Source: Candidatus Poribacteria bacterium
GTDB lineage: Bacteria; Poribacteria; WGA-4E; WGA-3G
Length of the DNA stretch: 64,000 bases
Direction: 5' to 3'
Assembly (NCBI GenBank): GCA_965215265.1
Contig: OZ244048.1
Location: 1,856,001-1,920,000 of the forward strand
Shown: positions 4,478-51,487 of the stretch, piece after piece
Numbering within the stretch: the stretch's first letter is position 1
Layout: every line of letters starts with the position of its first letter
Program-made: the position numbers and the translations under genes
The notes under the pieces: generated by a model
What the model saw: only the letters and a program-made list of their open reading frames with translations
What the model was told of the DNA's origin: nothing
Database searches by the model: none

Positions 4478-4639
4478 ATGAATCTCATAGAATTCATGGA
4501 GCGGTTTCCTGACCAAGAGAGTCGTCCTGACCACTTGGAACGCCTCAGATTGCGAGGAACGCCTGCCTGTCTAAAGTGTGGTAGTGTAAGTATCAAATGC
4601 AAAAAAGAGGAGGGTGTAGGGCGTGAAAGTATAACATAA
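4478..4639 (+). mobile_element. Truncated IS1595-family transposase (N-terminal Zn-ribbon remnant)
   Basis: MNLIEFMERFPDQES...HLERLR...CLKCGS resembles the IS1595 N-terminus (F..E..C...L...RW...CP.CG); no DDE domain follows. Confidence 0.7.
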
Positions 4640-4767
4640 GTCCAAAAAATGTCATGAAAAAAAATCAGTCTGTTGTCTCAAAATCTTTGTTAAACAGACG
4701 GGCAGTGGCCCAACTAAATCAACGATGCCAGTGCCACACGGTACCCGGCGATGGGCAGGTTATCCGC

Positions 4768-5340: not shown

Positions 5341-5352
5341 GCTTGGTTTTAT

Positions 5353-6414
5353 TTACTTCGGTGTTCGCCAAATCATGATGCTTCCAACACTCGCATAGAT
5401 GATATTCGCACCCCAGCATGCGACAAAAGGGTGAAGTTTGCCATTCTCACTAAGTCCTTCAAGTGTAGCGAAGGAGAGAGCCCAATAGATGAAGGCGAGG
5501 AAGAAAGCGATAACGAGTCCAGCGAAGAACCCGGCCCTACCGAAACGGATGGCGATGGGTGCGCCGAGCATCACGACGACAACAGCAGCGAACGGATACG
5601 CGGTTTTGTGGTACAACTTCACCTGTTCTAGGCGCGAGATCTGGCCCGCTTCCTGTTTGTATTCAATTTGTTGGCGGAGTTCTTTGATAGTCATTGCTCT
5701 CGGGTCTTTTGCACTGCCGATAAACTGGGCCGGGTCTTCGTGACGTTCAATCTGTCGTGTCGCAAAGGTTCCGTAAGCCACTTCTTTACCGTGTTCAAAG
5801 GTGCGGGTATATCCGTCAACCAATTTCCACTGCGTAGGTGTCCAAGTAGCAGAATTTGCAAAGATGACCCCGGCGAGCTGCCCTTGTTCGTCATATTCGT
5901 AAATAGTCAGTTGATTAATGCTTCGGTTTTCAAGGTCTATTCGCTGTGAGAAAAAGGTTCGGTTCTGCTTGCCTTTGAAAAGGATGTTTCTGCCGCGTCG
6001 GGGTTTGACGTTATTTTGCAATAGGTTTGCCTTATGGAAAGCCGGGGAGGCGACTCTGTTGTAAAAAATGGCGAAGATACAACAGATAAGGAGGGTGAAT
6101 GCAATAACAGGCACGAGGAGCCTGTAAACACTCACCCCGCCGGCTTTCATAGCCGTCAATTCGTTGCTTTGTACCATTCTGCCGAGGACAAAAAAGATTG
6201 CAATGAATCCTGACACGGGGACTACCTCCATAATCCGCCGTGGGGCTTGATAGAGAACGATTTTGACAGCGGTGATGTAGGTGATATCATCTTCAAATTT
6301 CTTGATGTCTTTGTCCAACAAGCGAACGATGACAACGAGTGCACTAAGGAAGAAGAGGGCTACAATGAAGGCTTTGATGTATTCTCGAAGCAGGTATCTG
6401 TCTAAAATATTCAA
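5353..6414 (-). CDS. lptG: LPS export ABC permease LptG (YjgP/YjgQ family)
   Basis: MNILDRYLLRE start, SNELTAMKAGGVS, YHKTAYPFA; in tandem with lptF. Confidence 0.88.
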   Translation of the reverse strand: MNILDRYLLREYIKAFIVALFFLSALVVIVRLLDKDIKKFEDDITYITAVKIVLYQAPRRIMEVVPVSGFIAIFFVLGRMVQSNELTAMKAGGVSVYRLLVPVIAFTLLICCIFAIFYNRVASPAFHKANLLQNNVKPRRGRNILFKGKQNRTFFSQRIDLENRSINQLTIYEYDEQGQLAGVIFANSATWTPTQWKLVDGYTRTFEHGKEVAYGTFATRQIERHEDPAQFIGSAKDPRAMTIKELRQQIEYKQEAGQISRLEQVKLYHKTAYPFAAVVVVMLGAPIAIRFGRAGFFAGLVIAFFLAFIYWALSFATLEGLSENGKLHPFVACWGANIIYASVGSIMIWRTPK

Positions 6415-35947: not shown

Positions 35948-38323
35948 TTATTCTGTCTGCGTTTCCGGTTGCGCTGTATCTTCCTGCCCGATGCGTAGCT
36001 GGCGTTCAGCATCGACAACATCGCGATTAATTTTATCTATGCATCGTTTGAGTTTATCAATCAGCGCTGTATGCCCATCCATGGCACGTAGGATTTGCCG
36101 GAGCTGGTCGATGACGAGTCTAAAGGTTCGGACGAAATCGCCTGGATCCATGTCAGCGTACTTCTCAAGTGTGTCGAAGTCACAGCCACTGCTCCAAGCG
36201 AGCATCGCACTACAGAGCTGCGGTTCTAACATCGGTACGGTTTCTGCGATGTTATGCTTCCGTTCTAAGTGCTGAAGGCTTAAAATTTCATCAGCGACAG
36301 CGGACAGCGTATCCAATAGGCGTTGATTTTTTAAACGTTTGTAGTAAGTATCTTTGCGAGGTTCTGAGACAATGGCTACCATCATACAATTAATTTCATT
36401 TTCAGTGAGTCGCTCAAAAAAATCTCTAAATAGCAATTGTGTAAGCTGCAGCTCATATCCGTAGATGTGTGAGGCGATTTTCCCCCGTGGGAGCAAGGTT
36501 TGACCTTCGATATATCCGAGCTCCTTGAGCACTTTAAGTTTTGCGGCTATCTGAGTACGTGGATAATTTTCAATGACCATTGTCTCTCTTTTGAGTTTTT
36601 GCACGCGCCGTTCTTGTCTTCGAATCCTTTTATATCTTCCGTTGCACTGTTTAAATTGGGTGCATTCTTCGCAGAGGCTTTGTATTGCAGTATTTTGAAT
36701 TTGCTTGATGCGTTTAAATATCGGTGCGAGCTTTTTGACGCGGAGCGCTTTTTTCTTTTTGCCGCGCGTCTCTGATTTAATCCGTGCCATTTCTGCATGC
36801 ACCCGTTGAAGTTCTCTGTCTGTATCTCTTTTGAGGCGATAGTGGGTCTCAATTTGTTCGGTTGCGTCAACACCTTCGTGAATGCATGTTGGGCGCGCCA
36901 GCGCTTGACATCTTTCATCAAGCACCTGAATCTGGTTATTGAGTCCAGCGATGCGCGTATAATTTTGATGATTGCTGAGGCTCATGGTATACACATCGTA
37001 AATGTCCTCGCCATACTTCTCATAGAGATTGAGTATGCTGGAATAAGAGAGATTAAACTGGCTCTCTATCGGTTCTATTTTATTATTTACGACATTTCTG
37101 ACAGCTTCTCTATCAATGTAGCGCGGCGGGATTTGTGCGTAAACGTAGCCGATGGTATCAATGCCGCGTCTACCTGCTCGGCCTGCCATCTGGTGATATT
37201 CGCGCGCCCTCAGGTGCCGGAAGCCGACTCCGTCGTATTTTTCCAAACTATCAAACACAACGGTGCATGCAGGCATGTTGATGCCGACAGCAAACGTCTC
37301 TGTGGTAAAGAGAAGTTGAATTAACCCTGAAGTGAATAAACGTTCAACGACCTCCTTAAGCGTCGGTAACATGCCGGCGTGGTGATACGCGATTCCGTTG
37401 CTGATGAGTCTGCGAAATTCGGCAATCTCCTTGTCTGCAGCGATGTCAAATTGAGTACAAAGTGCGTCAAATTGTTCGAGAATCTCTGCTTGCTGTGACG
37501 GATTGAGCAAGCTATCATGCACACCGGAGCCATAATAGCGTGCATTGGATTCACAGCCTTTTCGACTAAAACAGAAATAGAGACAAGGGAGCCGCCGTTC
37601 ACTTTGGAGATACGGAATCAGTTCTGTCTGTATCATTCCCGCGGGCAGGGTCGGTTTACTTTCATTCCGCTTCGATTCTTTGCACTTGTTCTGCAAAGCC
37701 ATCTTCTGGATTGTCTCCACATGTTTTAGCGTACCGATGCCGTAACCCGGAAAATAGAGGTGATGTTCCAAAGGCACAGGACGATTGCCTTCCTCAACCA
37801 CCTCAATCTCAATTTCTCGGATGCTTTGCATCCATTCGGCAAAATGATTGATATTCGGAATAGTGGCACTCAGACAGACGAATTTAATATGTTGTGGGCC
37901 GAAGATAAGGCTTTCTTCCCAGACGGTGCCGCGCTCAATATCATTGATATAGTGGATCTCGTCAAAAATAACGTAGGAGACATCGTTGAGCCGCTCAATG
38001 TCGTCAAAGATCATGTTCCGGAAGATCTCAGTTGTCATGAGCAGCACTTGCGAGTACGGATTTAGGACGATGTCGCCTGTGACAATGCCGATCTTTTCTC
38101 CGTATTCGGCATAAAAATCTCTATATTTCTGATTGCTAAGTGCTTTAATAGGGGCAGTGTAGATAACGCGGTGGTTTTCTTGGATACATTTTTCGACAGC
38201 GTATTCGGCGATGACTGTCTTACCTGCACCGGTGGGTGCAGTGACAATCACAGAGTTATCCCGATTTATGGCTTCAAGTGCTTCTTCTTGGAATCGATCG
38301 AGTTGTAATCCTTTATAAATCAT
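35948..38323 (-). CDS. Ski2-like DEAD/DEAH box RNA helicase (HelY-like)
   Basis: APTGAGKT, PIKALSNQKY, FDEIHY, LSAT, TETFAVGINMP, QMAGRAGRRG, DSHCT-like tail. Confidence 0.93.
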   Translation of the reverse strand: MIYKGLQLDRFQEEALEAINRDNSVIVTAPTGAGKTVIAEYAVEKCIQENHRVIYTAPIKALSNQKYRDFYAEYGEKIGIVTGDIVLNPYSQVLLMTTEIFRNMIFDDIERLNDVSYVIFDEIHYINDIERGTVWEESLIFGPQHIKFVCLSATIPNINHFAEWMQSIREIEIEVVEEGNRPVPLEHHLYFPGYGIGTLKHVETIQKMALQNKCKESKRNESKPTLPAGMIQTELIPYLQSERRLPCLYFCFSRKGCESNARYYGSGVHDSLLNPSQQAEILEQFDALCTQFDIAADKEIAEFRRLISNGIAYHHAGMLPTLKEVVERLFTSGLIQLLFTTETFAVGINMPACTVVFDSLEKYDGVGFRHLRAREYHQMAGRAGRRGIDTIGYVYAQIPPRYIDREAVRNVVNNKIEPIESQFNLSYSSILNLYEKYGEDIYDVYTMSLSNHQNYTRIAGLNNQIQVLDERCQALARPTCIHEGVDATEQIETHYRLKRDTDRELQRVHAEMARIKSETRGKKKKALRVKKLAPIFKRIKQIQNTAIQSLCEECTQFKQCNGRYKRIRRQERRVQKLKRETMVIENYPRTQIAAKLKVLKELGYIEGQTLLPRGKIASHIYGYELQLTQLLFRDFFERLTENEINCMMVAIVSEPRKDTYYKRLKNQRLLDTLSAVADEILSLQHLERKHNIAETVPMLEPQLCSAMLAWSSGCDFDTLEKYADMDPGDFVRTFRLVIDQLRQILRAMDGHTALIDKLKRCIDKINRDVVDAERQLRIGQEDTAQPETQTE

Positions 38324-38805
38324 CGTTTATTTCTTAAACCGATAAGTGTTGCAGGGCATTCACGCGTGTGGACGAGTTTCGTCTCTGAATTTATCTGTTT
38401 TTTCGTCCATAGTCACTCCAATATACACTAACGTGAGTTTGATAGAAACCGGGTGAATTTGCTCACAGTGAAAGAACGTCTCGTGGTATAATCAATACCT
38501 TCACGAAAGAAAACAGTGGATTTAACCGGCGAGTTATCCTAAAGTGAAGGTAAACAACTTCATCACTTTGAAAGCACAATTCCTCTCTAAAAACATTATA
38601 ACACATTTTGGCTGTTTGCAGCAATAGCGGTAAATGAGATTTTTTCTGGGCGACTCCGTCCTCGTTTTTTTTAGATTCCGTGGTAGGTTAAGGATAAAAA
38701 GAAAAAAATAATATTTTTGTCCAATTTTGTCTTTAATTTTCGTCATGTCATTATAGAAGGCAGCACATCAATTGCTGCGATAAGACGGACGGGAGGTAAA
38801 TCTGA

Positions 38806-39594
38806 ATGAATGAGGTAGAACTCAATCGGCATTTCTTAGAAACAGGGGACACAGACAGTTTCACGCGGATTTTTAAAAGGTATTACCACGGCGTGTTTAA
38901 GGCTGCGTTCCGCATTTTAAGAAATCCGCAGGATGCTGAGGAGGTTGCTAACGACACCTTCAGTAAAGCCTTCCAAGGGCGCGAAAACATCGTGCACCCG
39001 GAGAAGTTACCGGGGTGGTTATATAAAACCGCCCAGAATGTCGCGATTGATAGACGAAGAGCCGCTCTGAGCAGAGCAGACCACCTGCCAGAAGGTGCCC
39101 GGTTCGTCTCTTTAGATGCACTGCCACATGCCGAACAAGCGATAGGGTCAGCGTCTATTGACGCAGCGAGGCAGACAGAACAAGAGCAGGCCCGTCGCGA
39201 GCGATTGGCTCGACTCCTGCGCCTCCTTTCCGATATAGACTAGTCAATGATGGACCTCTTTTTAGACGGGTTCAAGCCTGTAGAAATAGCGGAAGCGTTA
39301 GGCTTAACGCCGGGTGCGACGCGAAAAAGACTGAAACCGGCGGAGGCGTGGTTAAGAAGCATCGCCCCGCAGTTGGAGGAGTTGCTCCGTTCTCTGCCTG
39401 CGGCAGAATTCAAAATAATGGAGCGGTATTTAGACGGACAATCTCCGGCGGAGATTGCCAAACATGTAGCTTTTTCCGCTCAAGCGGTGAGTGATAAAGT
39501 GGCGCGTGTGATAAAACAGTGGAGAACATCCACGAGAGAACCCGCCACGGTTTCATTCTCCACAAAGGTTCGTCGCAGAATTAACAGGGGATAG
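38806..39594 (+). pseudogene. ECF sigma factor with two tandem sigma-4 HTHs, interrupted by in-frame TAG at 39241
   Basis: DAEEVANDTF...GWLYKTAQNVAID (region 2); EIAEALG and EIAKHVA HTHs; the paralogue at ~47290 has CAG at the stop position; GGGAGG RBS. Confidence 0.88.
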
Positions 39595-39658
39595 AGATGT
39601 TAATGTATAGTGACTGCAAAACAGTATACGAAACTTGTTGTTTTTTTCATTGAATTTA
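38978..39658 (+). repeat. ~680 bp direct repeat, copy 1 (sigma gene plus downstream sequence)
   Basis: Near-identical to 47027-47707. Confidence 0.95.
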
Positions 39659-39842
39659 TTGAGAGGTGCGCCGAGGATGTCACTAGCAATCCTAGACGCT
39701 GCACTGCCATAACTTGGACAGCGTGAACCTAAGTTGTATTATAGAATGGATGCATTTTGTGGCACTTTTTGGTTAGCACCTTATAGGGAGATTATCAGAT
39801 CTTTCCTGACAGCAGTCCCCGAAAAATAAAGGAGAACATGAA

Positions 39843-40211
39843 ATGAAAATGTCTTTATGCCAGATAATTGCGATTGTCTGCATGCTCGTCGTAGGGTTCA
39901 TGACGGTTACACCTTTTGTGCCCCTCACGGAAGCAGGCTGGGATAGGGCTTCATCCCACGTCGTTACCGTCGATGTTTATGATATGTTTGATAACTACTG
40001 CGGTTCTTATGGGTACGGTTACTATGTGCCCGATACGACCACCACTCACTACAAGTATTATCACAGGGGCCCAACAACGCCTGATACTCATCCGCATCCA
40101 CATCTCGGGACTATCACAAGTACGCACTGGCATATAACGAGTAGAGACTTGGATACCTTGTGTGATGGAACTTACCCTATGTACGCATCGGGATCCTCGA
40201 CGAGTAGTTAA
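39843..40211 (+). CDS. Small secreted His/Tyr/Thr-rich protein (cassette protein A1)
   Basis: AAGGAG RBS, Sec signal ending TEA, THPHPH, two Cys in the mature part, Ser tail SSTSS. Confidence 0.8.
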   Translation: MKMSLCQIIAIVCMLVVGFMTVTPFVPLTEAGWDRASSHVVTVDVYDMFDNYCGSYGYGYYVPDTTTTHYKYYHRGPTTPDTHPHPHLGTITSTHWHITSRDLDTLCDGTYPMYASGSSTSS

Positions 40212-40240
40212 AACCGCAATCTGAAGCGTGTCAAAACGCC

Positions 40241-40272
40241 GACAGCGTTAAGAAGCCGTTCTTAACGCTGTC
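40241..40272 (+). terminator. Stem-loop between A1 and its partner gene
   Basis: GACAGCGTTAAGAA-GCCG-TTCTTAACGCTGTC, perfect 14 bp stem, no U-tract. Confidence 0.75.
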
Positions 40273-40294
40273 ACCCCTTAGAAAGGAAAAAACC

Positions 40295-40912
40295 ATGCGA
40301 ATTCTCGTTCCTTTTTTTATAGTTTGTGCACTTGCAATTGGATGGTCTCTCTATCTTGAGTATGACACAAACAAGTTCATCGACAGTCTGCCCAAGCCGC
40401 CAGCTCCTATAGACGAGACTGCCACGGATTCTCGAACGAATGAACAACCCGTCTTGGAAACAGAGGCGGCCCCTTCAGGAATAGATGAGTCCCCTGTCGT
40501 TTCGAGCACTGAAGAAACGGCGACGGCACCACATCCACAGCCGCATCCTCATGAACATCAGGACACCGTACAGATTCCTTTGAAGGACATTAACGATTGG
40601 AGAACGGATAGGAGACCTTATACACCACCTCAAGCAAAGCAGGATCCCTTTGTACAGAGAAAAGTGCCCTTTGAAGGGCTCAGAGAACGTCTTGTTGAAA
40701 AACATGGAGATATTCCAGAAGTTCATCAATATATAGAACTTCAGCGGAAACACCACAACAGGGAACAGCTGAGACAGGATGAGGTGATGACTTATTGGGA
40801 GTTAACGGTAAAATTCCATCCAACGAAGCGAAATCTAGAAACCTACGAACTGATAAAAAGGTTGACAGAAGCCGCAGATCCGGAGAGCTTCCACTTGGAG
40901 TATTATGACTAA
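40295..40912 (+). CDS. Membrane-anchored GDIPEV-family partner protein P1
   Basis: N-terminal TM plus YLEYDTNKFIDSLPKPP, PHPHEH linker, KHGDIPEVHQY domain. Confidence 0.85.
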   Translation: MRILVPFFIVCALAIGWSLYLEYDTNKFIDSLPKPPAPIDETATDSRTNEQPVLETEAAPSGIDESPVVSSTEETATAPHPQPHPHEHQDTVQIPLKDINDWRTDRRPYTPPQAKQDPFVQRKVPFEGLRERLVEKHGDIPEVHQYIELQRKHHNREQLRQDEVMTYWELTVKFHPTKRNLETYELIKRLTEAADPESFHLEYYD

Positions 40913-41120
40913 GCCTTCTTATCTTTATTCTTGAATTTCTCGCGCAGCGATAAGTACGTACATGGTGTGGAGTGTGGCCGTTGTGGTGGTGAGGTCTGGC
41001 CCTGCATTGCATTAATGATGATCATCACAAGAGTTCGTAAAATACTTAACAGAGGAGAGTAGAGATGTTAACGTATAGTGAATGCAAAACAGTAAATGTC
41101 CGAAACTTGTTGTTTTTTTG

Positions 41121-41149
41121 TTGACTTTAATGCAGGAGTGTGTTATACT
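41121..41149 (+). promoter_or_regulatory. Sigma-70-type promoter upstream of cassette protein A2
   Basis: TTGACT-17 bp-TATACT with extended -10 TG. Confidence 0.7.
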
Positions 41150-41184
41150 GTTTTACATCTCCTGCGAAATGAAAGGAGTTACTT

Positions 41185-41530
41185 TTGAAATCTATTTTCT
41201 TGAAACGCCTTGCGATTGTTATCATTCTCTCAGCCAGTTTGCTGGAGATGAGTCCCTTTTTGAAATGGCCCCCGACCTCGGATGCACATCCAGCTGAAAG
41301 GTGGTGGCATTTTCACCTCATTGTATGTGCAGAATGGGATGGAACAGACCACACCTACTGTAGCCACCCCCTATGAATTTAGTCTCCTCACTAGGGACCC
41401 GGAGCCAAACAACCCCAGCTCTGAGGATGATCCAAACCATAACGGGCACAGTCAGGTGGGGCTCCCTGATGTGCACACCTCTGAACTTGAACGCGTAGAC
41501 GATTGCGACGACTGCTCGACTTCGAGTTGA
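41185..41530 (+). pseudogene. Small secreted His/Cys-rich protein A2, +1 frameshift at a C5 run (41367-41371)
   Basis: AAGGAG RBS; signal ...TSDA|HPAERWWHFHLIVCAEWDGTDHTYCSHP joins YEFS...NHNGHS...VDDCDDCSTSS when one C is removed. Confidence 0.8.
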
Positions 41531-41631
41531 GCACAAAAACTCATCGACGCGTTAGGGGGGTACTCTCGCATGTGAGTGCCCCGCTCATTTGAAAACGCGT
41601 CGTGCAGCCGAAAAAGGAGAAAAGATTTCCT

Positions 41632-42366
41632 ATGCGTATTCTCTTTAGAATCACAATTGTCATTGTTGTGGCACTCCTTGGAGTGGCCATCTATACCACG
41701 CTTCGATCCCAAACGTTGATTCCAGCCGTCCCGCCATTGCAAGTTGAAAAATCCACACCGCTATTACAAGTTGAAAAATCCGCACCGTCTGAAAAATTGC
41801 CGACACCGTTAGACAGCGAACTCCCACGTGCGGAACAGCCCGCCGCAAGGTTCGAGGAGGTGTCAGACGAAGAACCGGTACCGGACACAACAGACCTCGC
41901 TCCCGATCCGGAAAACGCGGCATCGCCCCTCCCCGACTGGCGAACTGATGATGAAACGGCACAGCCCCAATCATCAGACCTGTGGCAGCAGGAAGACATG
42001 AGCATGAAATTTGTGGAGTGGGACGGATTGTCAGAAGACAAGCAGTTGAGTATTTTAGAGAAAGGGCTACTTCAGCAATACGGCGATACGCCGGCGGTCC
42101 GGAAGGTCATCGACTTTCAGAACAAACCGAAACATCTCCCTACACCAATTGATGATGCGATCGTCTTGGCCGAAGCGTTCCTTGAGTTGTGGCCAAGTGA
42201 AAAAGCGCGTCAAAATGTGATAGAGCTTAAAACGACTCAAAGCGGAGGGATTCGAAGGATTTCCGGGCGCACGACCGGCACCCTGAGAACATTGTCACGT
42301 ATTCGTTATCGGCGGGGTGCCCCTGGACGCGTTTCATCATTTTCCCTATCCTTGGAGATTCGGTAA
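41632..42366 (+). CDS. Membrane-anchored partner protein P2 (possible frameshift near 42230)
   Basis: TM, DWRTD motif shared with P1, QYGDTPAVRKV...LWPS; removing one A near 42230 gives the tail ELKRLKAEGFEGFPGARPAP* ending at 42286. Confidence 0.8.
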   Translation: MRILFRITIVIVVALLGVAIYTTLRSQTLIPAVPPLQVEKSTPLLQVEKSAPSEKLPTPLDSELPRAEQPAARFEEVSDEEPVPDTTDLAPDPENAASPLPDWRTDDETAQPQSSDLWQQEDMSMKFVEWDGLSEDKQLSILEKGLLQQYGDTPAVRKVIDFQNKPKHLPTPIDDAIVLAEAFLELWPSEKARQNVIELKTTQSGGIRRISGRTTGTLRTLSRIRYRRGAPGRVSSFSLSLEIR

Positions 42367-42604
42367 ATCCAGACGTGTGCCATGCCGTTGAGGACGGACA
42401 ACTGCTTCCAATTCTCCGTTGAGTGTCCCTGTCTGTGGACACGTCCGATTTGTGAGTCTCGGATATAGATGACTTCATATTGTGCATGAAGTATTATAGG
42501 CAGACTGACTGGATAAGCGTGTCCATCAAAATAGTGTTTATTGATTTGTGCGAAGGATACCGTATCTGTCTTTGTGCGCCAAGAAAAAATGAGGATATTT
42601 TTTG

Positions 42605-42633
42605 TTGACGCTTTTTCAGAAAAGTGTTATACT
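42605..42633 (+). promoter_or_regulatory. Sigma-70-type promoter upstream of cassette protein A3
   Basis: TTGACG-17 bp-TATACT with extended -10 TG; same layout as 41121. Confidence 0.7.
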
Positions 42634-42668
42634 TGACGAGGGTTAATCAAAGATAAGACAAGAGGAGC

Positions 42669-42934
42669 ATGAGGGACCTCTATCTTATCATCAATTTACC
42701 GAAAACCCTTAAACAAACGCGCATCCGAAACGCCTTGACTACACCCATACAACATATTGGTGTCATGAGAAATCGGGAGAGCTCCCGCGCTTTGTAAAAG
42801 TTGGAATTCCTCGAGGTCGCGTGCGGTGTGGCCTTGGGACGAGTGACGGTAATCACAAACCTCACTCTATCGAGAAAAATCAACATTCTTATGACAATGA
42901 GAGTTACACTGTCTCGAATTGTAGTAAATGCTAA
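42669..42934 (+). pseudogene. Degenerate secreted His/Cys-rich protein A3 (absent from the ORF track)
   Basis: AGGAG+ATG 42669; the frame from 42719 reads A|HPKRLDYTHTTYWCHEKSGE...GNHKPHSIEKNQHSYDNESYTVSNCSKC*, aligning with A2. Confidence 0.75.
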
Positions 42935-43006
42935 GCGTGTTTAATGTTACGTTGATGCAAGAGTGAAGAGACTCCTGCATCACTTGGCACTCAGAGGAGA
43001 ATTAAG

Positions 43007-43648
43007 ATGAGAAAATGGTTGATAGCATCTATAATCTTTGTCGCTTTTGCGGCTAGCGTTTTTATCTACACGCAGTGGGCGAACCGAAGATTTGCCGCCT
43101 CATTGCCAAAACTGCCACCTGTAGAACAACAATCTGTAGACACACATCCACACGATGCTTCACATCCGCATGAGGATCCCGTCCCTACAACACCCTCAAA
43201 CGCCAACGTGTTGGACACTCAAACGATTATCACAGAAAAATCAGTCTCCCCGGAAACGATTGCAGAGGAGAACGCGCAAGTGGCGACTGAGGAAGAAACC
43301 TTTTCTGTGGAAGAAAGCCCCCCGGCGCGGCTAACCGGTGATGAGCACGAGCATAAACCCACTAAGGACCCGTTTGCAAAGGAAATAAAACGGATTGATG
43401 ATATGGATGCAGATGAGTACAGAGAGATGATACTTGGCGGGCTACTTGAAAAATTCGGCGACATCCCCGAGGTTCACACATTTATGGAGTTTACCGTAAA
43501 AATAAGAAAGAAAGAGGAACTCAGCTTGGATGAACGCATTGAATTTACGAGCGCCCAGTACTATTTGTGGCCACACCCTGAAACCAAGAAAACGCTTGAG
43601 ATTTTCTTGAAGGAAAGAACCTCTGAAAACGTAAGGAGAACACAATGA
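43007..43648 (+). CDS. Membrane-anchored partner protein P3
   Basis: TM plus YTQWANRRFAASLPKLPP, HPHDASHPHE, EKFGDIPEVHTF...LDERI...LWP. Confidence 0.85.
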   Translation: MRKWLIASIIFVAFAASVFIYTQWANRRFAASLPKLPPVEQQSVDTHPHDASHPHEDPVPTTPSNANVLDTQTIITEKSVSPETIAEENAQVATEEETFSVEESPPARLTGDEHEHKPTKDPFAKEIKRIDDMDADEYREMILGGLLEKFGDIPEVHTFMEFTVKIRKKEELSLDERIEFTSAQYYLWPHPETKKTLEIFLKERTSENVRRTQ

Positions 43649-44145
43649 AATTTTTCAAGACGTTACTCGTTTTTTTTCTCTTTGTCACCGTGCTCTCGGG
43701 TTGCAGTGTGAGGCAGGGCAATGAACCTGACAAAAATGAACCGCTTCCAAACACAGCTGATGTCCGTGATAAACAAGCGGCTCCTAAAGCAGATTTTATC
43801 CCCGGGTTCCATCCGTTTAAGGATGACCCAGACAATCTGAGTCCGCACAATCCATTCGTCCGGAAGTTCGGGGATATCCCAGAAGTCCGCACCTATATCC
43901 GACTCAAGCGGAAACTGGGACTCGGACACGGACTGAACATTGATGAGGCAATAGAACTCTATACCGCAGAATACCACCTCTATCCCTCAGATACCACAAA
44001 AGCAAACTTAAAAAAGTGGAAAAAGGAAAAAGAACGATACATCAAACTGGGGATCGATATAGGTGGACCTGTACTCACTGACAGCAGATATCCGATCGTA
44101 GATGCGAGTGCTGAAGAGCAGGCAGACACGAAATCGGAGGATTAA
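43645..44145 (+). CDS. Lipoprotein carrying the GDIPEV domain (P4)
   Basis: Lipobox LSGC; RKFGDIPEVRTY...IDEAI...LYP; ATGA overlap with P3. Confidence 0.85.
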   Translation: MKFFKTLLVFFLFVTVLSGCSVRQGNEPDKNEPLPNTADVRDKQAAPKADFIPGFHPFKDDPDNLSPHNPFVRKFGDIPEVRTYIRLKRKLGLGHGLNIDEAIELYTAEYHLYPSDTTKANLKKWKKEKERYIKLGIDIGGPVLTDSRYPIVDASAEEQADTKSED

Positions 44146-44302
44146 TCTCCTTGAAAAGAAGGCATACGTCAAGTCTGAACTTTACCCATTGGGTCGTGCC
44201 ACGTTTCTTACCCATGGTAGCAATACTTTTGGAACACCGGGCGAGAAAAACGGGGATCAGGAAACATTCTGGAACAATGGCTAGCATTTAGAGGAAAAAA
44301 AG

Positions 44303-46080
44303 TTGGATGTGTCCGGAAAAAAAAGACTTGGAGAACGGGCAGCATCGCCGCCCGCTTATTAGGTTATCTCAAACCGTATTGGGGGTTAGCCCTGCTGTGT
44401 GTGTTCCTCTATGTCGGTTTCCGGGCCACCTACTTCGTCAACCCCTGGGTGGAAGGGCAACTTCTTGACCGCGTCTTTGGTGAAAAAGATGCCGACTTTC
44501 TACTCGTCCTGGTGGTTTTCTGGATGGGTATTGCGCTTGCCACTTATCTCCTAAATCTGGGTTTGTCGTCTTTTGTATCCAAGGTCACCGGTCAAACTCG
44601 CCGGGATATGCAACTGCAAGTCTACCAACATCTGCGCTTTTTGCCCAGCCGTTTTTACGACGACCACACAACGGGACAGATTATGGCTTACGTCAATTCC
44701 GATACAACGTCCGCTGCGGAAGGGATTTTGGCAAGCGGATGGATTCTCCTCGCAGGGGTTGAATTTGCCATGACTCTATTTGTTATGTTCTGGGTGAATC
44801 CCTGGTTGGGCCTTTTTAGTATTCCTTTTGCCTTTGCTGTGGTTTGCCTTCCGGTTCTTTTGCGAAGGCCTGTGCAAAACGCGTCAAAGCAGGTCTTGCA
44901 GGAAAGAGAAAAGATTTCATCACGGCTCCAAGAAGGAATCGCCGGGTCACGAGAGATTAAATCTCTCGGGCATGAGATGCGAGACATGGGGTTTATCCGC
45001 CGTTCAATAGATACCCTTGTCCGGGCAGAAGTCTATCAAACGATTATTGGGTGCCTAACAGGAGTTAGTATCTTTTCTTCTTGGTTTGGCAATGCCCTTT
45101 TCTTCCTCATCGGTGGGAAAATGGTGCTCGACGGGCACATCAGCGTCGGTTTTCTGTGGATGGCAAACCGGTATTTGAATCTGCTCACCTACCCCTTACA
45201 TCAAGTCCAAAATGAATATCAAAAACTCCTCCGAACCGGAGAAGCAGCAAAACGTGTGTTTGCTTTCCTCGACGAAAACCGAACCGAACCGAAAGATGGA
45301 CTTGTTTCTGTCACTTTACAAGGAAAGGTCCGGTTTGAAAACGTCTACTTCACCTACAATGAAAACGCGGAAGTCCTCCAGGACGTTAATTTTGAGGTGG
45401 TGCCAGGGCAACTGGTGGCACTCGTAGGTCCCAGCGGTGCAGGGAAAAGCACCCTCCTTAACCTCATTCCACGTTTCTACCAACCCACCCGAGGACAGAT
45501 TTATGTTGATGAGCACGATATCACGACACTCAACCTGAGTACCCTCCGCGCTCAGATTGGCACAGTGTTTCAAGACCCTTATCTCTTCTCTGGTTCGATT
45601 GAGGAAAATATCCGAATGGGGGCTCGGCATCCAGAGGCTGTGAAAACGGCGGACATTGTTGCTGCTGCCACGGCTGCAAACGCCCATGGATTTATCACGC
45701 AATTCAAAGACGGATACGCGACAGAGATAGGGGAGCGAGGCATCAAACTCTCCGGTGGCGAGCGGCAACGGATTGCTATTGCTCGTGTGCTGATGCGGGA
45801 TCCGAACATTCTCCTGCTAGATGAAGCCACTTCTGCGCTGGACTCAGAGACAGAGCAGGTTGTGACGGAGGCGTTGGAGCGGTTGATGCGAGGACGGACA
45901 TCGTTTGTTATCGCACATCGGTTGTCTACCGTGCTGAATGCGGATGTGATTCTGGCCGTGGAAGACGGCAACATTGTGGAACAAGGCACGCATCAGGAGC
46001 TGCTGAATCAAGGTGGACTCTATGCCCGGTTGTATCACTTACAATTTGCGGCACCTGCTGGCTACTCAAAAGAGCAATAA
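44303..46080 (+). CDS. ABC exporter, fused permease/ATPase (MsbA/Sav1866-like, no C39 peptidase)
   Basis: GPSGAGKS, LSGGERQR, LLLDEATSALD, IAHRLST; frame is open upstream of 44401 (RLLGYLKPYW), with a likely start at TTG 44303 and a slip in an A8 run. Confidence 0.88.
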
Positions 46081-46403
46081 CCGATTCATCGTTGTAAAGT
46101 CCTTCGGTGTCGAGTTATGAAATACTCAAAATCTCTTCAACTTTCAATCCCCGAACATGTGCGTTCGGTCCGTTTTGATGAAAAAGATGGACTTCCTTCG
46201 TCAGTAACCGTTTTAAATTACGAAACCGGAGAATTTTACGCTTTAGATAAAGTTGGTTTTGATTTTTGGTGTCTTGTTGAAAAAAAAAGCGTCTAGAAGA
46301 AATTGTCACTGCGTTAATCTCAACATACGACATTAGCGCAGACCAACTCTGGATAGATAATGATGGATAAAAAATTGAATCTTAAAGGCGTTGGAGACAC
46401 GAT

Positions 46404-46967
46404 ATGCGTTTTGATTGAAGGGGTATTCATTGGGCTCTCTGCAATCCGTGCAAACAAGATGCGCTCTTTGCTCACTCTGCTCGGGGTCATCATCGGTGTC
46501 GCCTCGGTGCTTTTGAGATGCGTTTAGCCATGGCGCAGTTGGAAAAAATCAGTCAAGTCATAAAGATTACACTCGGCAGCATTGCGGGCTTTTCGCTGCT
46601 TGTCGGCGGCATCGGCATTATGAATATGATGTTAGTCGCCGTGAGTGAAAGAACGCGCGAAATCGGACTCCGGAAAGCCCTCGGTGCAAAGCGCCTAGAC
46701 ATTCTGGTGCAGTTTCTCCTGGAAGCCGTTGTGATGTGTGGCGTAGGTGGCACGATTGGCGTTGCGGTGGGCATCCTTGCCGGCCAAGGCATGGCACGGC
46801 TTGCTGTCAAAATCGTCAAAATCGTCCCTGAATGGCCGGCAGTCCTCTCGACAGAATGGATGTTGATATCGGTCTCCTTTTCAGCACTCATCGGTATCGG
46901 CTTTGGGTTGTATCCTGCGATAAAAGCATCATCGCTCTCGCCGATGGATGCCTTACGCACAGATTAA
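46404..46967 (+). pseudogene. MacB/FtsX-like ABC permease with the periplasmic domain deleted
   Basis: N-terminal AIRANKMRSLLTLLGVIIGVASVL joined out of frame near 46514 to C-terminal LLVGGIGIMNMMLVAVSERTREIGLRKALGA. Confidence 0.85.
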
Positions 46968-47026
46968 CTCCTGATGATTTACCACCCCATGATACGACGA
47001 AAACACAAAATGATGAACGTGACGCT

Positions 47027-47707
47027 GGCGTGAAAACATCGTGCACCCTGAGAAGTTACCGGGGTGGTTATATAAAACCGCCCAGAATGCCGCGATTAAT
47101 AGACGAAAAGCTGCTCAGAGCAGAGCAGACCACCTGCCAGAAGGTGCCCGGTTCGTCTCTTTAGATGCACTGCCACATGCCGAGCAAGCGATAGGGTCAG
47201 CGTCTATTGACGCAGCGAGGCAGATGGTACAAAAGCAGGAAAGGCGCGAGCGATTGGCTCGACTCCTGCGCCTCCTTTCCGGTAGGGACCAGTCAATGAT
47301 GGACCTCTTTTTAGATGGGTTCAAGCCTATAGAGATAGCGGAAGCGTTAGGCTTAACGCCGGGTGCGACGCGAAAAAGACTGAAACCGGCGGAGGCGTGG
47401 TTAAGAAGCATCGCCCCGCAGTTGGAGGAGTTGCTCCGTTCTCTGCCTGCGGCAGAATTCAAAATAATGGAGCGGTATTTAGATGGGCAATCTCCGGCGG
47501 AGATTGCCAAACATGTAGCTTTTTCCGCTCAAGCGGTGAGTGATAAAGTGGCGCGTGTGATAAAACAGTGGAGAACATCCACGAGAGAACCCGCCACGGT
47601 TTCATTCTCCACAAAGGTTCGTCGCAGAATTAACAGGGGATAGAGATGTTAATGTATAGTGACTGCAAAACAGTATACGAAACTTGTTGTTTTTTTCATT
47701 GAATTTA
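47027..47707 (+). repeat. ~680 bp direct repeat, copy 2
   Basis: Near-identical to 38978-39658. Confidence 0.95.
47041..47643 (+). pseudogene. 5'-truncated copy of the ECF sigma factor
   Basis: Lacks the first ~57 codons (most of region 2) but has no internal stop. Confidence 0.85.
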
Positions 47708-47885
47708 AGGTAGGTAATGTGATAAGATAATTCACGTCTCCTGCAAGTAGTTTTTAGAACAACCTTAGCTAGGACAAGCAAAGCCAAGGCATGGACTTTG
47801 TCTATGCCTCTGCTTACACCTTCGATCCTTACCACCAATCTAGCCCCGCACGGCGGTGTGCCACACTAACAGAGAGGATAAACAA

Positions 47886-48395
47886 ATGCGCCTTTTTTAC
47901 CTGATTTGTATCGGCATTGTCCTTCTTAGCGGTATTGGAAGTCTATACTTGTATCTGGATACGAAACGGTTTTCTGAAAATCTTCAAAAAACCCCACACC
48001 GGTTAAAAGCGTTGACAGGCGCTCCTACAACGCTTCAGGAAAAAATTGAGCGTGCGGAAGCGAGCAACAAGTTGTTTCCGAATCCAACAACGCAAAGAAC
48101 TCTTACCCAACTCTATGCCGCTCGCTCTTACGAGATTGATAAAATCATGCCGTTTGTAGATACCCCGAAAGATGAACGTTTCGCAGATGTCATTCCGTTC
48201 TTTGAGGGAAAACGTCCGGAGGAAGGGTTCCGGGCCCTGAGAGCGGTCAGCCCGAATCGCGCTGCGGAGCTTGAACAGTTTCTGCTGCAGGAAAGCGAAA
48301 AAAAATCCTTCGTCCTAGTAGAGTTTGTCTCATTAAAGGTGAAAGACGATTGCCGGTCCGGTCCTTTTTCGTCACAGAATCTGAATGTTGTTTAG
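47886..48395 (+). CDS. Partner protein P5 (apparently internally deleted)
   Basis: TM plus YLYLDTKRFSENL, then directly LQEKIERAEASNKLFPNPTTQRTL; linker and GDIPEV are missing. Confidence 0.7.
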   Translation: MRLFYLICIGIVLLSGIGSLYLYLDTKRFSENLQKTPHRLKALTGAPTTLQEKIERAEASNKLFPNPTTQRTLTQLYAARSYEIDKIMPFVDTPKDERFADVIPFFEGKRPEEGFRALRAVSPNRAAELEQFLLQESEKKSFVLVEFVSLKVKDDCRSGPFSSQNLNVV

Positions 48396-48469
48396 ATATC
48401 CAACAAATTTAGCGTGAGGTGTACTCTCTTGCTGTGCACCTCACGTGCCGCCAGATAAAGGAGATAAAA

Positions 48470-49279
48470 ATGCGTTACTTGACACTCATTGTTGTTAGTT
48501 TTATTGTCTTAATAGCGGCTGGAAGTATCTACCTCTATATAGATACAAAACGGTTTATTGAGAATTCCGTGCAACCTCCAAGACAAGACACTACACCCCC
48601 TGAGGGCTCGCCTTCTCTTCAAAATCAACTTTCGGAGCACACCGTCCCCCCATTGGATACACCGTCAACTCCCCCAACGCAGAGGAAAAACGGGACTGAG
48701 CCAGTCGAATGGTGGGACGATGGGGCAGATGCAGAGCAGACTCACGCCCATGGAGATGCATCGAAACAGAATCAGACCTCTGACATCAAAGAGGAAGAAA
48801 GTGTTAATTGGCTGGACCTTACAACCCCGTATGAGCGAGCAGACGCTTTACGCGCCTCACTCCTCAGACAGTTTGGAGATGTCCCCGAGGTGGATGCTGT
48901 TGTAGAAGGATTTTTAAATGTATGGACGCAGACATCGATGGACACAGCTGAACGTCTCCGGTTCAATAGAGCCCTAAACACCTTCTGGCCAGCCGAAAGT
49001 ACACAAAAAGTGATTGAATATCTCGAAACAGGAAAACTCCCCACTCACACTCAACCGAGTGGGCCATTCCTGAATCTTCGACATCAATTCCCTGACTTCG
49101 AACCATTCGTGGCGGAGTATGGATTTGAAGCAGGGGTTCTCAGGTTTGCGGAGCAGAATCCAGAGAGAGCCCTTGAATTTAAACGGGCCCTCTGGCAAAC
49201 GCATGAAGTTCAAAGCCGGCTTGAAGAAATGTCTGAGGAGGCCAGAAGGTTTTTCAAGGAAATCACATCACAAGAGTAA
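48470..49279 (+). CDS. Membrane-anchored partner protein P6
   Basis: AAGGAG RBS; TM plus YLYIDTKRFIEN, HAHGD, RQFGDVPEV...FWP. Confidence 0.85.
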   Translation: MRYLTLIVVSFIVLIAAGSIYLYIDTKRFIENSVQPPRQDTTPPEGSPSLQNQLSEHTVPPLDTPSTPPTQRKNGTEPVEWWDDGADAEQTHAHGDASKQNQTSDIKEEESVNWLDLTTPYERADALRASLLRQFGDVPEVDAVVEGFLNVWTQTSMDTAERLRFNRALNTFWPAESTQKVIEYLETGKLPTHTQPSGPFLNLRHQFPDFEPFVAEYGFEAGVLRFAEQNPERALEFKRALWQTHEVQSRLEEMSEEARRFFKEITSQE

Positions 49280-49297
49280 ACAATGAGACAACATTTC

Positions 49298-49410
49298 ACT
49301 CCGTCTCTGCCTGAGGCAGAATTCAAGATAATGGAGTGGTATTTGGATGGACAATCTCCTGATGAGATTGCCAAACATGTTGCTCTTTCCCCTCAACGGG
49401 TGTGATAAGC
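49298..49410 (+). pseudogene. Third, diverged fragment of the ECF sigma gene (second HTH)
   Basis: TCTCTGCCTGAGGCAGAATTCAAGATAATGGAGTGGTATTTGGATGGACAATCTCC...GAGATTGCCAAACATGT aligns to ~39391-39498. Confidence 0.85.
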
Positions 49411-49450
49411 AAGTTGCGAGATAGGTTATCTTTTTCTCGCAACCCACTAG

Positions 49451-49630
49451 GTGGAGAAAAATAGATATGCTGGTTCTGAATGTTCAAGCGTAATATGGTT
49501 GTATACAGTCTGGTCCTATGAGGAAACACGAACTTACACAGATGGCGAGGGACACTGCGGGGCCGTGCATGTGATCGTTGCAGCTACCCCATGTGGCCTC
49601 TGCGACTCTTGTGAAGGATCTTCTTCTTAG
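49451..49630 (+). pseudogene. C-terminal remnant of a Cys-rich cassette protein (A4)
   Basis: Reads ...ECSSVIWLYTVWSYEETRTYTDGEGHCGAVHVIVAATPCGLCDSCEGSSS*, the same CxxC plus Ser tail as A2; an R2 repeat sits where the 5' end should be. Confidence 0.6.
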
Positions 49631-49762
49631 TCCCTAGCGCGAGCAGGGTGGGGATCCGCGGGAGATTGAGGAACTTGTTTTGAAAGCAATTCGTGATGAT
49701 GATAAAGAGGAGGAGAAGGAGTCCGTTGAGGAGGAAGGTGATATTTAGAGTCAATACATCGA

Positions 49763-49830
49763 ACGGCTCAGACGAGATTTACACACGAGTTATCATTACA
49801 TAGGCGTTGATGGTACGGAGATATACGAAT
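49763..49830 (+). repeat. Dispersed repeat family R1 copy
   Basis: GGCTCAGACGAGATTTACACACGAG...CGTTGATGGTACGGAGATATAC. Confidence 0.85.
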
Positions 49831-50031
49831 ATTTGACGAAAAATGCTATTTTTGATTCATAACCTAGCACTGCTTTGGCGAGATTTGTAAAGATTTTAGA
49901 AAAACATAGAGCGTTGATGTGCTACAGTATACAAAAAGGCGTTTTTCCTCATGAAACTTGACTGCGTTCCTGAGACACACTGCAATTGTCCGATGGATGT
50001 CTCAGGGATGCATAAACAAAGGAAAATTCTA

Positions 50032-50694
50032 ATGAAAAAAGTGATTTTCACTGCGATACTCTCACTCGTTTTGGGCACGGCTTGGATGCTCTACTTGGAG
50101 TCTGATAATAGGCGGTTTATAGAGCAGCTTCCGAAACTACCTGCCAATGTTACACGACCCGTTGACACCGCCGATGCCCCTGTAACGCCAGAAAGCGGCG
50201 AAACCATTACCACAGCCACCTCTCCCTTAGAACCCGCGTCTGACACCCAAGTTGCGGACAGGTTCACAGAGCGAGTCCCTGTCCAGCCGGAGACATACAC
50301 GGACGGAACCTCACAAACAGAGACGACAGATTTTCTGTCTGAAGAGAACATGTCTGAAACAGTTTTTGAAGATGTTGCTGAGCGTTCCACGCGTCTTTCA
50401 GCGAAAGAGTTTCTTATGAAAGAGTTGGGACTCTCTGAGGCAGAAATAGATGCCAAGAAAGAAGCGTATAAGGATCTAAACAGACTGTTTTGGGCGAAAC
50501 CCGAAAATTGGGCAAGCGGCCGGCCGGGTGAGGTAGGTTTTCGATTCGAAGTCTGGACGAAAGAAGATCATGAAGTGATTCGGCGAGCACTTGGTTCTCC
50601 GCCCTTGCCCCCTGCACTGCCCGAGCAAACGCCAGCTGTGAAGATGCGTGAACCCCAGTTACCTGCACACGAAGTTTTCCCTGAAGACGATTGA
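50032..50694 (+). CDS. Membrane-anchored partner-like protein P7 (same N-terminus, different C-terminal domain)
   Basis: TM plus YLESDNRRFIEQLPKLP as in P1/P3; no GDIPEV motif. Confidence 0.8.
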   Translation: MKKVIFTAILSLVLGTAWMLYLESDNRRFIEQLPKLPANVTRPVDTADAPVTPESGETITTATSPLEPASDTQVADRFTERVPVQPETYTDGTSQTETTDFLSEENMSETVFEDVAERSTRLSAKEFLMKELGLSEAEIDAKKEAYKDLNRLFWAKPENWASGRPGEVGFRFEVWTKEDHEVIRRALGSPPLPPALPEQTPAVKMREPQLPAHEVFPEDD

Positions 50695-50915
50695 TGACGG
50701 TATTCAAGAGCTTGCTGCGGTGTGATGTCAGTCATGCCGCGGAGATTCTCGTCGTTTTAGGTTCATTTCTGCTTGTGTGTGTGCCACGCGTAATCTCTTT
50801 AGATGCACATGGGTCTAGTGGTGAAGCAAAGTGGTTACTCCGGAGCGCGCAGTTCATGTCTACTGTCAAGCAGGTGAGTTCTCTGAAACCCTCATCATAC
50901 ATCACCCTGGTGTGA
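50691..50915 (+). pseudogene. Probable degenerate cassette protein A5
   Basis: Hydrophobic signal ending SLDA|HGSSGE; alternate frame VHVYCQAGEF; followed by a hairpin at 50930-50972. Confidence 0.5.
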
Positions 50916-51009
50916 CGACGATGTGGCTTGCGTTAGAAGAAAACCCTTTGAAAAGGGTTTTCTTTCTAACGCACCTTTTTTATGGAGCCGTGCCTGAATG
51001 TTGAGAACC

Positions 51010-51412
51010 TCCCAGTGGGTTGCGAGTAAAAGGTTAGCTTTTCTGTCCTTCAGGACAGAAAAAGAATACCTATCTCGCAACTTTTGAAAAGTTAAGTCCT
51101 GATTCTATTACCGACGATATGGATGGCTACTCTATCTTCCCGAGCCACGAGCGGCGGAATGGGCAGAACAGTGAGTCTAAAAACTCTACGAGTCGCCCTA
51201 CCGGCATCGGATCTCATTGCAACATTACATAATAGTGTTTCCTGATTCGCAGGACACGTGACAACTGCCCAATGGGTGGCGAGTAAAAGGTTATCCCAAT
51301 GGGTGGCGAGTAAAAGGTAGCATAACGTGTCCTTCAGGACACGCGTAAACTACCTATCTCGCAACTTTTCTGTCCTTCAGGACAGAAAAAGAATACCTAT
51401 CTCGCAACTTTT
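51010..51412 (+). repeat. Cluster of R2 repeat copies (MITE/REP-like)
   Basis: CCCA.TGGGT.GCGAGTAAAAGG x3 and TGTCCTTCAGGACA...TACCTATCTCGCAACTTTT x3. Confidence 0.85.
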
Positions 51413-51487
51413 TTGCCTTCATGTAAACCTGCATCTCGTTTTTTGCGTTAGATTTGTTTAGTTTAGGGCAAAATTGACAAATCCATT

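Follow-up and report, generated by a model that had tools for sequence, protein, structure and literature searches.

A histidine exposed at the amino terminus by removal of the signal peptide is well established as a chelator of metals; as a search handle, it has uncovered four classes of bacterial metalloproteins, two of which are tethered “anglerases” (PMC12537917). The closest parallels to the proteins described below are CopC, the lytic polysaccharide monooxygenases (LPMOs), YcnI, and the DUF4198, DUF6702, Ang-1, and Ang-2 proteins, which were identified by “signal strapping” (PMC12537917): in these, a conserved His comes directly after a signal peptide, further His are conserved, and the protein is small, beta-rich, and extracytoplasmic. 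A family predicted to combine such traits emerges from a 64,000-nucleotide (nt) stretch of the genome of a Candidatus Poribacteria bacterium (contig OZ244048.1, positions 1,856,001 to 1,920,000; “the window,” with the coordinates below counted from its first letter), where two broken genes, here termed A2 and A3, each lie upstream of a gene for a membrane-anchored partner-type protein, B. An earlier note on this stretch had read A2 and A3 as a hidden mini-protein family with an amino-terminal His, an NHxxHS motif, and four spaced Cys, and had proposed a disulfide-stapled, beta-rich scaffold binding copper, nickel, or zinc. Judged from their sequences, A2 and A3 are broken members of a real family that is undescribed in Pfam, NCBIfam, the PDB, and the literature searched. 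This bears out the observation of the earlier note and, in part, its interpretation; that the intact paralogue A1 lacks an amino-terminal His, that two intact relatives have another residue in its place, that the protein is predicted to work on B, and that both copies are pseudogenes are points beyond that note. The best explanation that we can offer, with a confidence falling somewhat short of even, is that they are pseudogenes of a Sec-exported His/Cys mini-protein family whose members dock on B, the pair being a candidate unit for the capture or relay of metal in the periplasm.

The two genes lie on the forward strand in the following pieces.

41185 to 41376, + strand: 5′ part of A2, with a TTG start at 41185, a signal peptide, predicted cleavage between SDA and HP, His1, the first and second Cys, and a stop at 41374-41376.
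41367 to 41371, + strand: run of five C (C5), the frame break of A2; the tail is in the +1 frame, and a single shift here joins both parts (read-through P0001).
41372 to 41530, + strand: 3′ part of A2 in the +1 frame, with NHNGHS (His-x2-His), a carboxy-terminal CDDC, STSS, and the stop.
42669 to 42721, + strand: start-codon remnant of A3 (MRDLYLIINLPKTLKQT...), in a frame different from that of the mature part, with the hydrophobic core of the signal peptide gone.
42722 to 42934, + strand: remnant of the mature part of A3, with the His1 codon at 42722, the first Cys, two shifts (one of −1 near 42786, at ALCKSW, and another near 42835), GNHKPHS, CSKC, and a stop at 42932-42934.

A2 is not one uninterrupted frame from start codon and signal peptide to stop: its 5′ frame reads MKSIFLKRLAIVIILSASLL...SDA up to the predicted cleavage site and HPAERWWHFHLIVCAEWDGTDHTYCSHPL beyond it, and its tail reads ...NHNGHSQVGLPDVHTSELERVDDCDDCSTSS before the stop that ends at 41530. 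The break is common to a relative, which has an 82-residue open reading frame (ORF; P0002) with the same out-of-frame amino-terminal part and one substitution; of the 10 candidates in a homologue search with the A2 read-through, a single protein was a hit, the relative's tail ORF. A3 likewise has no single open frame, with the hydrophobic signal core missing and two frame changes. The frame from 42713 reads TNAHPKRLDYTHTTYWCHEKSGELP, with ALCKSW one frame back, and the tail reads GNHKPHSIEKNQHSYDNESYTVSNCSKC before the stop that ends at 42934; from the −10 hexamer of the promoter to the His codon there are about 86 nt, against about 135 nt in A2. The earlier note had recovered the second Cys of A3 by the −1 shift near 42786, and the frames are as it described them. 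The repair is confirmed by comparison with the A gene of another locus, L006, because that gene reads ...GLWMVLCKSWT in one frame.

Taken alone, the resemblance of A2 to A3 is weak (local alignment z = 2.3, with 31 of 1,000 shuffles reaching the score), and one reading would be a chance likeness in noncoding DNA, with no real family behind it. This explanation is hardly credible against the relatives, of which 17 are intact, with lengths of 105 to 129 residues, two of them in Poribacteria loci and 15 from a protein library. A3 aligns with the intact gene of locus L013 at 40% identity over 77 residues (E = 3.7e-12) and with the L006 gene at 31% over 86 residues (E = 4.5e-5). The L013 gene (L013:9603-9917, 105 residues) and its L001 counterpart (L001:9581-9931) are intact; in L006 the signal peptide stands in another frame at a run of seven T (T7), and in L004 the frame shifts just after AEAHYN. 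When 1.84 billion representatives were searched exhaustively with a profile, 18 matched at E ≤ 1e-3: 15 are intact secreted proteins of 106 to 129 residues with signal peptides, one is the A2 tail ORF of a relative, and two repeat proteins were dropped. When a profile built from the 17 relatives, with all window sequences excluded, was scored against all 1,879 six-frame segments of the window, ranks 1 to 4 went to A1 (the first A gene of the same array; E = 1.5e-6), A3 (8.1e-6), the A2 tail (0.035), and, colinear with that tail on the profile, the A2 head (0.75). Conserved synteny with B likewise speaks against chance, and the shared family claimed by the earlier note is borne out by intact homologues with an invariant His pair and four Cys. 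Where the taxon is known, the family has so far been seen only in Poribacteria.

Searches for a described counterpart gave no Pfam family below E 0.01 for the 19 members, no NCBIfam match for the three members tested, a best E of 1.5 in a sequence search of the PDB, and no usable match in the ESM Atlas. Literature searches on copper and pseudogenes in Poribacteria and on the amino-terminal His and the histidine brace turned up no paper describing the family; the passages of PMC8546597 on pseudogenes, in the part consulted, concern another symbiont and not this family. One further window ORF, 49451-49630, ends in CGLCDSCEGSSS and recalls the CDDCSTSS end of A2, but it did not reach E 10 with either family profile and was rejected.

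We define the family by a signal peptide, His-x12-Cys, a second Cys 9 to 14 residues on, two invariant His, and a carboxy-terminal C-x2-C. A2 shows these features when read through its single break and A3 once two shifts are allowed, and both match the window-free profile. In a 19-row alignment, numbered as the mature L013 protein (two MAFFT alignments in which the A2 head fragment was misaligned were left out), Cys14, Cys26, His49, His52, Cys71, and Cys74 occupy every row, so that both the C..C pair and C-x2-C are found in 19/19, and His42 is present in 16/19. His1 is found in 17/19 rows, and its position lies exactly 12 residues before Cys14 in all 19. In line with the −3/−1 rule of signal peptidase I, position −1 is A, G, or S in 18/19 rows, and all 19 have T, S, A, or V at position −3; we infer that the mature protein, of 74 to 98 residues, begins with a His exposed by signal peptidase at this predicted site. 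The alignment falls into two subgroups, one with His-x2-His in 9 of its 10 rows (including A2 and A3) and the other with His-x6-His in all nine of its rows (including L001). The combination given by the earlier note, of HP-x11-C, an NHxxHS-type His pair, and C-x2-C, holds in the family as the fixed His1-Cys14 spacing, the two invariant His columns, and the terminal Cys pair. The check that it had set on conservation, of His1 and HxxH in intact homologues, leaves its idea standing: the His pair is invariant, and a His mostly follows a site that conforms to the cleavage rule. Two intact relatives depart from His at position 1, and the pair is spaced by six residues in the other subgroup.

The A genes are coupled to a second family. 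In L001, L004, L006, and L013, and at three places in the window, a B gene is immediately preceded by an A gene; 67 to 102 nt separate the two in 7/7 pairs. The members of these pairs in the window, besides A2 and A3, and their spacer elements are as follows.

39843 to 40211, + strand: A1, an intact 122-residue secreted small protein with the family's signal peptide and gene position.
40295 to 40912, + strand: B1, a membrane-anchored partner-type protein with an amino-terminal transmembrane helix, a His-rich PHPQPHPHEH tract, and a conserved carboxy-terminal GDIPEVH...P domain.
41545 to 41602, + strand: stable stem-loop of the A2-B2 spacer; the spacer 41528-41634 folds at −41.4 kcal/mol (z −4.9; 0/200 shuffles as stable).
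41632 to 42366, + strand: B2, a partner-type protein with its carboxy terminus frameshifted at a run of four A (A4, 42229-42232).
42954 to 42981, + strand: stem-loop of the A3-B3 spacer, with a GAUGCAGGAG/CUCCUGCAUC stem type as in L013 (z −2.7 in the window, z −3.8 in L013).
43007 to 43648, + strand: B3, partner-type and intact, its His-rich tract reading THPHDASHPHED.
43645 to 44145, + strand: B4, a short paralogue of the other B genes whose signal resembles that of a lipoprotein (LSGC, in ...VLSGC), its start overlapping the end of B3 by 4 nt.

B1 to B4 are paralogues at 26 to 33% identity, each with an amino-terminal membrane helix, a long acidic linker, and a conserved carboxy-terminal domain with GDIPEVH, the profile of which resembles a designed tetratricopeptide repeat (TPR) (E = 3.2e-6 over 32 positions); B4 may be a lipid-anchored version of the B domain. 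A His-rich tract, taken as at least 4 His in 12 residues, occurs in 11/49 B homologues, B1 and B3 among them, versus 9/399 other ORFs. B2 follows its relative P0011 up to ...IELK and then diverges: it has one extra A in the A4 run compared with P0011, its last 17 residues are replaced by a longer unrelated tail, and the +1 frame from 42233 reads RLKAEGFEGFPGARPAP and a stop, like P0011. Either a genuine mutation or an assembly error at the homopolymer could account for this extra A; in the relative that shares the A2 break, the end of B2 is intact.

When the seven A-B spacers were folded (40209-40297, 41528-41634, and 42932-43009 in the window and those of L001, L004, L006, and L013), every one was found to contain a stem-loop, of 10 to 14 bp and with a sequence that differs between loci, at z ≤ −2.7 in 6/7. 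This element could be an attenuator or a stabilizer of the mRNA end that sets the ratio of A to B.

A1 stands apart in its mature part, which begins GWDRASSH..., has two Cys, and lacks both the amino-terminal His and C-x2-C. It has five homologues at 57 to 63% identity, and its link to A2 and A3 consists of the signal peptide and gene position only; its alignment to the window-free profile takes in the whole signal peptide. Its membership in the A2/A3 family was considered and rejected, as hhalign of the A1 family against A2 gave a probability of 0.3 and an E of 0.18 over 6 columns and shuffling of the mature parts showed no significant similarity; AlphaFold2 (6 rows, predicted local distance difference test [pLDDT] 46.2) gave no usable model of A1. 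In L006, a small secreted Cys-rich protein (L006:4264-4530) has a signal peptide 74% identical to that of A1 over 31 residues and an unrelated mature part, and its gene is followed by one for a membrane-anchored His-rich protein at 4618-5688; the A1-type signal peptide seems to be reused as a cassette. A further secreted type of about 115 residues, with Cys and His-x2-His-x2-His, lies beside B homologues at L027:1609-1956, L014:10390-10743, L020:2283-2636, and L018:10355-10771 and matches the A profile weakly (E 0.5 to 8).

For the mature L013 protein, AlphaFold2 (20 rows) gave a model with a pLDDT of 90.3 and a predicted template modeling score of 0.63, four of the five models lying at 87 to 90. 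It consists of three strands (4-17, 23-37, and 58-68) and a short helical turn at C-x2-C, in agreement with the beta-rich fold that the earlier note had expected. Going by the strand limits, residue 17 would stand opposite residue 23 and Cys14 opposite Cys26, so that a cross-strand disulfide between the two Cys is likely; by the same limits, His1 would come close to His42 and the end of strand 2. Structure searches with Foldseek gave no match at E ≤ 0.001, the best E being 1.2 in the PDB and 0.47 among viral models.

Complex prediction with residues 25-215 of L013 B, the mature L013 A protein, and our own alignments gave interaction prediction scores from aligned errors (ipSAE) of 0.77, 0.77, and 0.80, against 0.01 for the best of 3 controls. 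The mark of the docking tool is reached by 116/157 solved complexes and 2/215 mismatched pairs, counts that are rough here because the alignments were supplied by us. The pLDDT of the partner was 73 to 76, and the runs had at least 66% of contacts in common. The pass is not a recall of a known complex, because neither chain has a solved relative. A is thus predicted to dock onto the conserved carboxy-terminal domain of B: the interface pairs B residues 127-202, within that domain, with one face of the A sheet (the odd residues of 7-17, with 21-32 and 57-67), and His1, His42, His49, His52, and C-x2-C lie outside its confident part.

Taking these predictions together, we propose that A would be a three-stranded beta-sheet with its first hairpin probably stapled by a Cys-Cys bridge and its chain ending in C-x2-C, and that B would be held at the inner membrane by its single amino-terminal helix and a long acidic, often His-rich linker. 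One face of the A sheet would dock onto the conserved helical, TPR-like carboxy-terminal domain of B, leaving free a face with His1 and the invariant His, to which C-x2-C is close in sequence, as a putative copper, nickel, or zinc site. The A-B pair might then act as a membrane-tethered periplasmic unit for metal capture or metal relay. Metal binding through the amino-terminal His is plausible, and candidates for a second His in the A family are His42, His49, and His52; in the histidine brace, a second His completes a T-shaped copper site with the amino terminus (PMC10952591, in the excerpt used).

Of the amino-terminal-His proteins named at the outset, none matches the A family in sequence or fold; A has an additional invariant carboxy-terminal C-x2-C, and its metal binding is putative. 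The CopC and LPMO folds are larger beta structures. The LPMO domain is an immunoglobulin/FnIII-like beta-sandwich of roughly 150 residues or more, and the A family, with 74 to 98 mature residues, three strands, no Pfam match below E 0.01, and 0 Foldseek matches at E ≤ 0.001 in the PDB, does not match AA9 or AA10. CopC is a beta-barrel of about 100 residues with His1 plus an Asp/His site, and the His-Pro start is the sole resemblance of the A family to it; its Pfam family (PF04234) was absent for 19/19 members at E ≤ 1, and no CopC chain was found among the 50 Foldseek matches listed. The hook of Ni-superoxide dismutase is an amino-terminal His-Cys-x-x-Pro-Cys, whereas A has Pro, Tyr, Ala, or Trp as residue 2 and, in 19/19 rows, its first Cys at position 14. 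In the amino-terminal copper- and nickel-binding (ATCUN) motif, residue 3 is His and the backbone amides of residues 2 and 3 are free, whereas a His at position 3 is found in 0/19 A amino termini and a Pro at position 2 in 9/19.

The tethered proteins offer a functional parallel. A membrane tether keeps Ang-1 and Ang-2 in place for the capture of metal ions (PMC12537917), and a complex of A on B would amount to the same. They differ from A in that Ang-1 is an eight-stranded immunoglobulin-like sandwich, against three strands in the A model, and in that the His1 domain of both is fused to a HupE/UreJ-2 permease (PMC12537917, likewise), whereas A is a stand-alone protein of 105 to 129 residues with no PF13795 match, its predicted tether being a separate protein, B, bound noncovalently. 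YcnI and YcnJ of Bacillus subtilis, like A and B, are encoded by adjacent genes and are two extracytoplasmic membrane-associated proteins; one amino-terminal-His copper site and a proposed exchange of metal characterize that pair (PMC12362106, in the part consulted). The families are unrelated, however, B has no transporter domain, and there is no copper regulator in the A-B locus. A bolder form of our proposal, about which we are distinctly doubtful, is that A and B form a novel type of device for handling metal in the periplasm, combining a previously unseen fold, an amino-terminal-His site, and a noncovalent hold on a membrane-tethered TPR-like receptor with a His-rich leash, and that in sponge symbionts the pair has multiplied as diverged A-B cassettes, possibly one per metal or condition.

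Several observations weigh against metal capture or relay by A and B. Position 1 is Asn in P0027 and Thr in P0031, both intact; A2 and P0034 lack His42; and A1, the sole intact A gene of the array, is without His1 and C-x2-C. B2 and the B partners of the L001- and L004-type A proteins have no His-rich tract. Pfam and Rfam scans found no recognizable metal transporter, metal regulator, or metal riboswitch near the array, the Rfam scan over 38300-51500 yielding no riboswitch and just four weak matches, each of which fell far short of its gathering score. The homopolymer breaks (C5 in A2, T7 in L006, and A4 in B2) could partly be assembly errors. Of the seven A2/A3-type genes seen as DNA, four are broken (A2 and A3 in the window and those of L004 and L006), and many B genes have no A gene, a pattern that is also that of toxin/immunity arrays.

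The broken A genes and the lone B genes bear on the chief rival explanation, which we consider unlikely: that A and B are a bacteriocin/immunity-like pair, A being a small exported, disulfide-stabilized toxin and B its membrane-anchored periplasmic neutralizer, in arrays that diversify while toxin genes decay and orphan immunity genes are kept. Bacteriocins or periplasmic toxins with a membrane-anchored immunity protein are a general type, and A-B shares with it a small exported protein with (putative, in A) disulfide bonds, an adjacent membrane-anchored binder, tandem diverged arrays, lone binder genes, and decaying small genes. A scan with the B profile, one genome per species, found 28 loci, 24 titled Poribacteria and 4 “uncultured bacterium,” and an A2/A3-type gene stands directly upstream of B in just 4/28, as the rival would have it. 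The tandem A-B pairs of the window are diverged, with a separate B subtype for each subtype of A; although four A2/A3-type genes are broken, their B partners all still match the family profile, with a shift confined to the carboxy-terminal tail of B2. An ABC (ATP-binding cassette) exporter directly 3′ of the array, the predicted binding of A to B, and a spacer stem-loop that would let A exceed B would also suit a toxin and its neutralizer. On the other hand, no toxin or bacteriocin family was matched in Pfam, NCBIfam, or the PDB, and the predicted A-contacting part of B is its most conserved region, whereas immunity interfaces are usually hypervariable. A Sec signal alone would leave the protein in the periplasm of a two-membrane cell, which we take Poribacteria to have, and a toxin would leave unexplained the position-fixed amino-terminal His and the invariant His pair.

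In another reading, B holds A in the envelope as a structural subunit or as a ligand unconnected with metal, such as a signal for the adjacent extracytoplasmic function (ECF) sigma factor or a surface-layer component, with the His and Cys residues serving the fold or pH-dependent binding only. This we also judge improbable. The module was duplicated together with an ECF sigma gene, the pair adjoins an STT3-like oligosaccharyltransferase in L013 and L006, and the binding to B is predicted without any metal. B, however, has almost no cytoplasmic residues and so cannot be a classical anti-sigma factor; the A2 and A3 promoters are sigma-70-like and not ECF-like; and four conserved His positions over both subgroups exceed the usual need of so small a fold.

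The array runs along the + strand in the order ECF-type sigma gene, A1-B1, A2-B2, A3-B3-B4, and ABC exporter, with these further elements.

38806 to 39594, + strand: gene for an ECF-type sigma factor at the array head (Pfam Sigma70_r2 and Sigma70_r4_2).
41008 to 41119, + strand: remnant of a sigma-gene 3′ end with a conserved downstream element, aligning with the ends of both sigma copies (repeats D1 and D3).
41121 to 41149, + strand: sigma-70-like promoter of A2, TTGACT-17-TATACT (10/12 matches, TG before the −10 hexamer).
42605 to 42633, + strand: sigma-70-like promoter of A3, TTGACG-17-TATACT, 78% identical to the A2 promoter (repeat D5).
44401 to 46080, + strand: ABC exporter, directly after the array.

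The sigma gene contains sigma region 2, two region-4 matches, and an in-frame TAG at 39241-39243. This is a CAG-to-TAG change, with Gln in the 94%-identical copy at 47041-47643, which has itself lost the amino-terminal part. An 18-nt core from 41008-41119 occurs 3 times in the window against 0.04 expected, and the sigma 3′ remnant ahead of A2 shows that what was duplicated was a sigma-A-B unit. On the letters of the window, then, A2 and A3 are pseudogenes, relics in a decaying, duplicated sigma-A-B array. The damage is one frameshift in A2 and, in A3, loss of the signal peptide and two frameshifts, with promoters and B genes persisting; the A2 and A3 promoters probably survive because they serve B2 and B3/B4.

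An alternative to decay is that A2 is still expressed through its C5 run, which would act in +1 slippage or as a switch for phase variation, the T7 run of L006 doing likewise for a −1 slip. By the rules of ribosomal slippage, tRNA-Pro can shift its pairing by +1 on CCC-C, and the U UUU UUU of L006 makes a perfect heptamer for −1 slippage; moreover, the A2 break is common to two assemblies, and the 52-codon tail is still open. Against this stand the ordinariness of the site, with in-frame CCC-C at 18/95 CCC codons of 19 long ORFs and CTA, at 8.6% of Leu codons, not very rare, and the fact that break sites vary between loci, that of L004 not lying at a run. A3 has multiple lesions, and the adjacent sigma gene has a plain nonsense substitution. 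Continued expression of A2 is accordingly very improbable, and programmed +1 frameshifting at CCC-CUA-UGA was rejected, as the codon counts give it no support.

The entire region from 38.8 to 50.7 kb is one field of duplicated modules. It holds three copies or fragments of an ECF-type sigma gene that has two region-4 matches (38806-39594, 47041-47643, and 49283-49405), the second without an in-frame region 2 and the third a region-4 fragment only. The second sigma copy is followed by three more distant B-like genes (47856-48395, 48419-49279, and 49951-50694; E 2e-7 to 3e-16 with the B profile). An FtsX-type permease ORF at 46518-46967 has the carboxy-terminal domain only, with fragments in upstream frames, and looks truncated. 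Where the window has the ABC exporter, L013 has an STT3-like oligosaccharyltransferase (L013:11146-13557; PF02516, E = 3e-13) directly after A-B3-B4; the counterpart in L006 (L006:11113-12892) is broken and split into several ORFs.

For annotation, the result is that a number of short or odd ORFs in these genomes can be read as fragments of a single gene family in decay. With a domain of 74 residues and a predicted partner domain, the system has a size suited to direct biochemical and structural work. A real metal site would mean a very small and structurally new scaffold among the metalloproteins with an amino-terminal His, and it would be one in which the catcher protein and the membrane tether are separate, co-evolving proteins. 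It would also give a first functional handle on a cassette that has multiplied in Poribacteria, uncultivated sponge symbionts with few characterized envelope systems.

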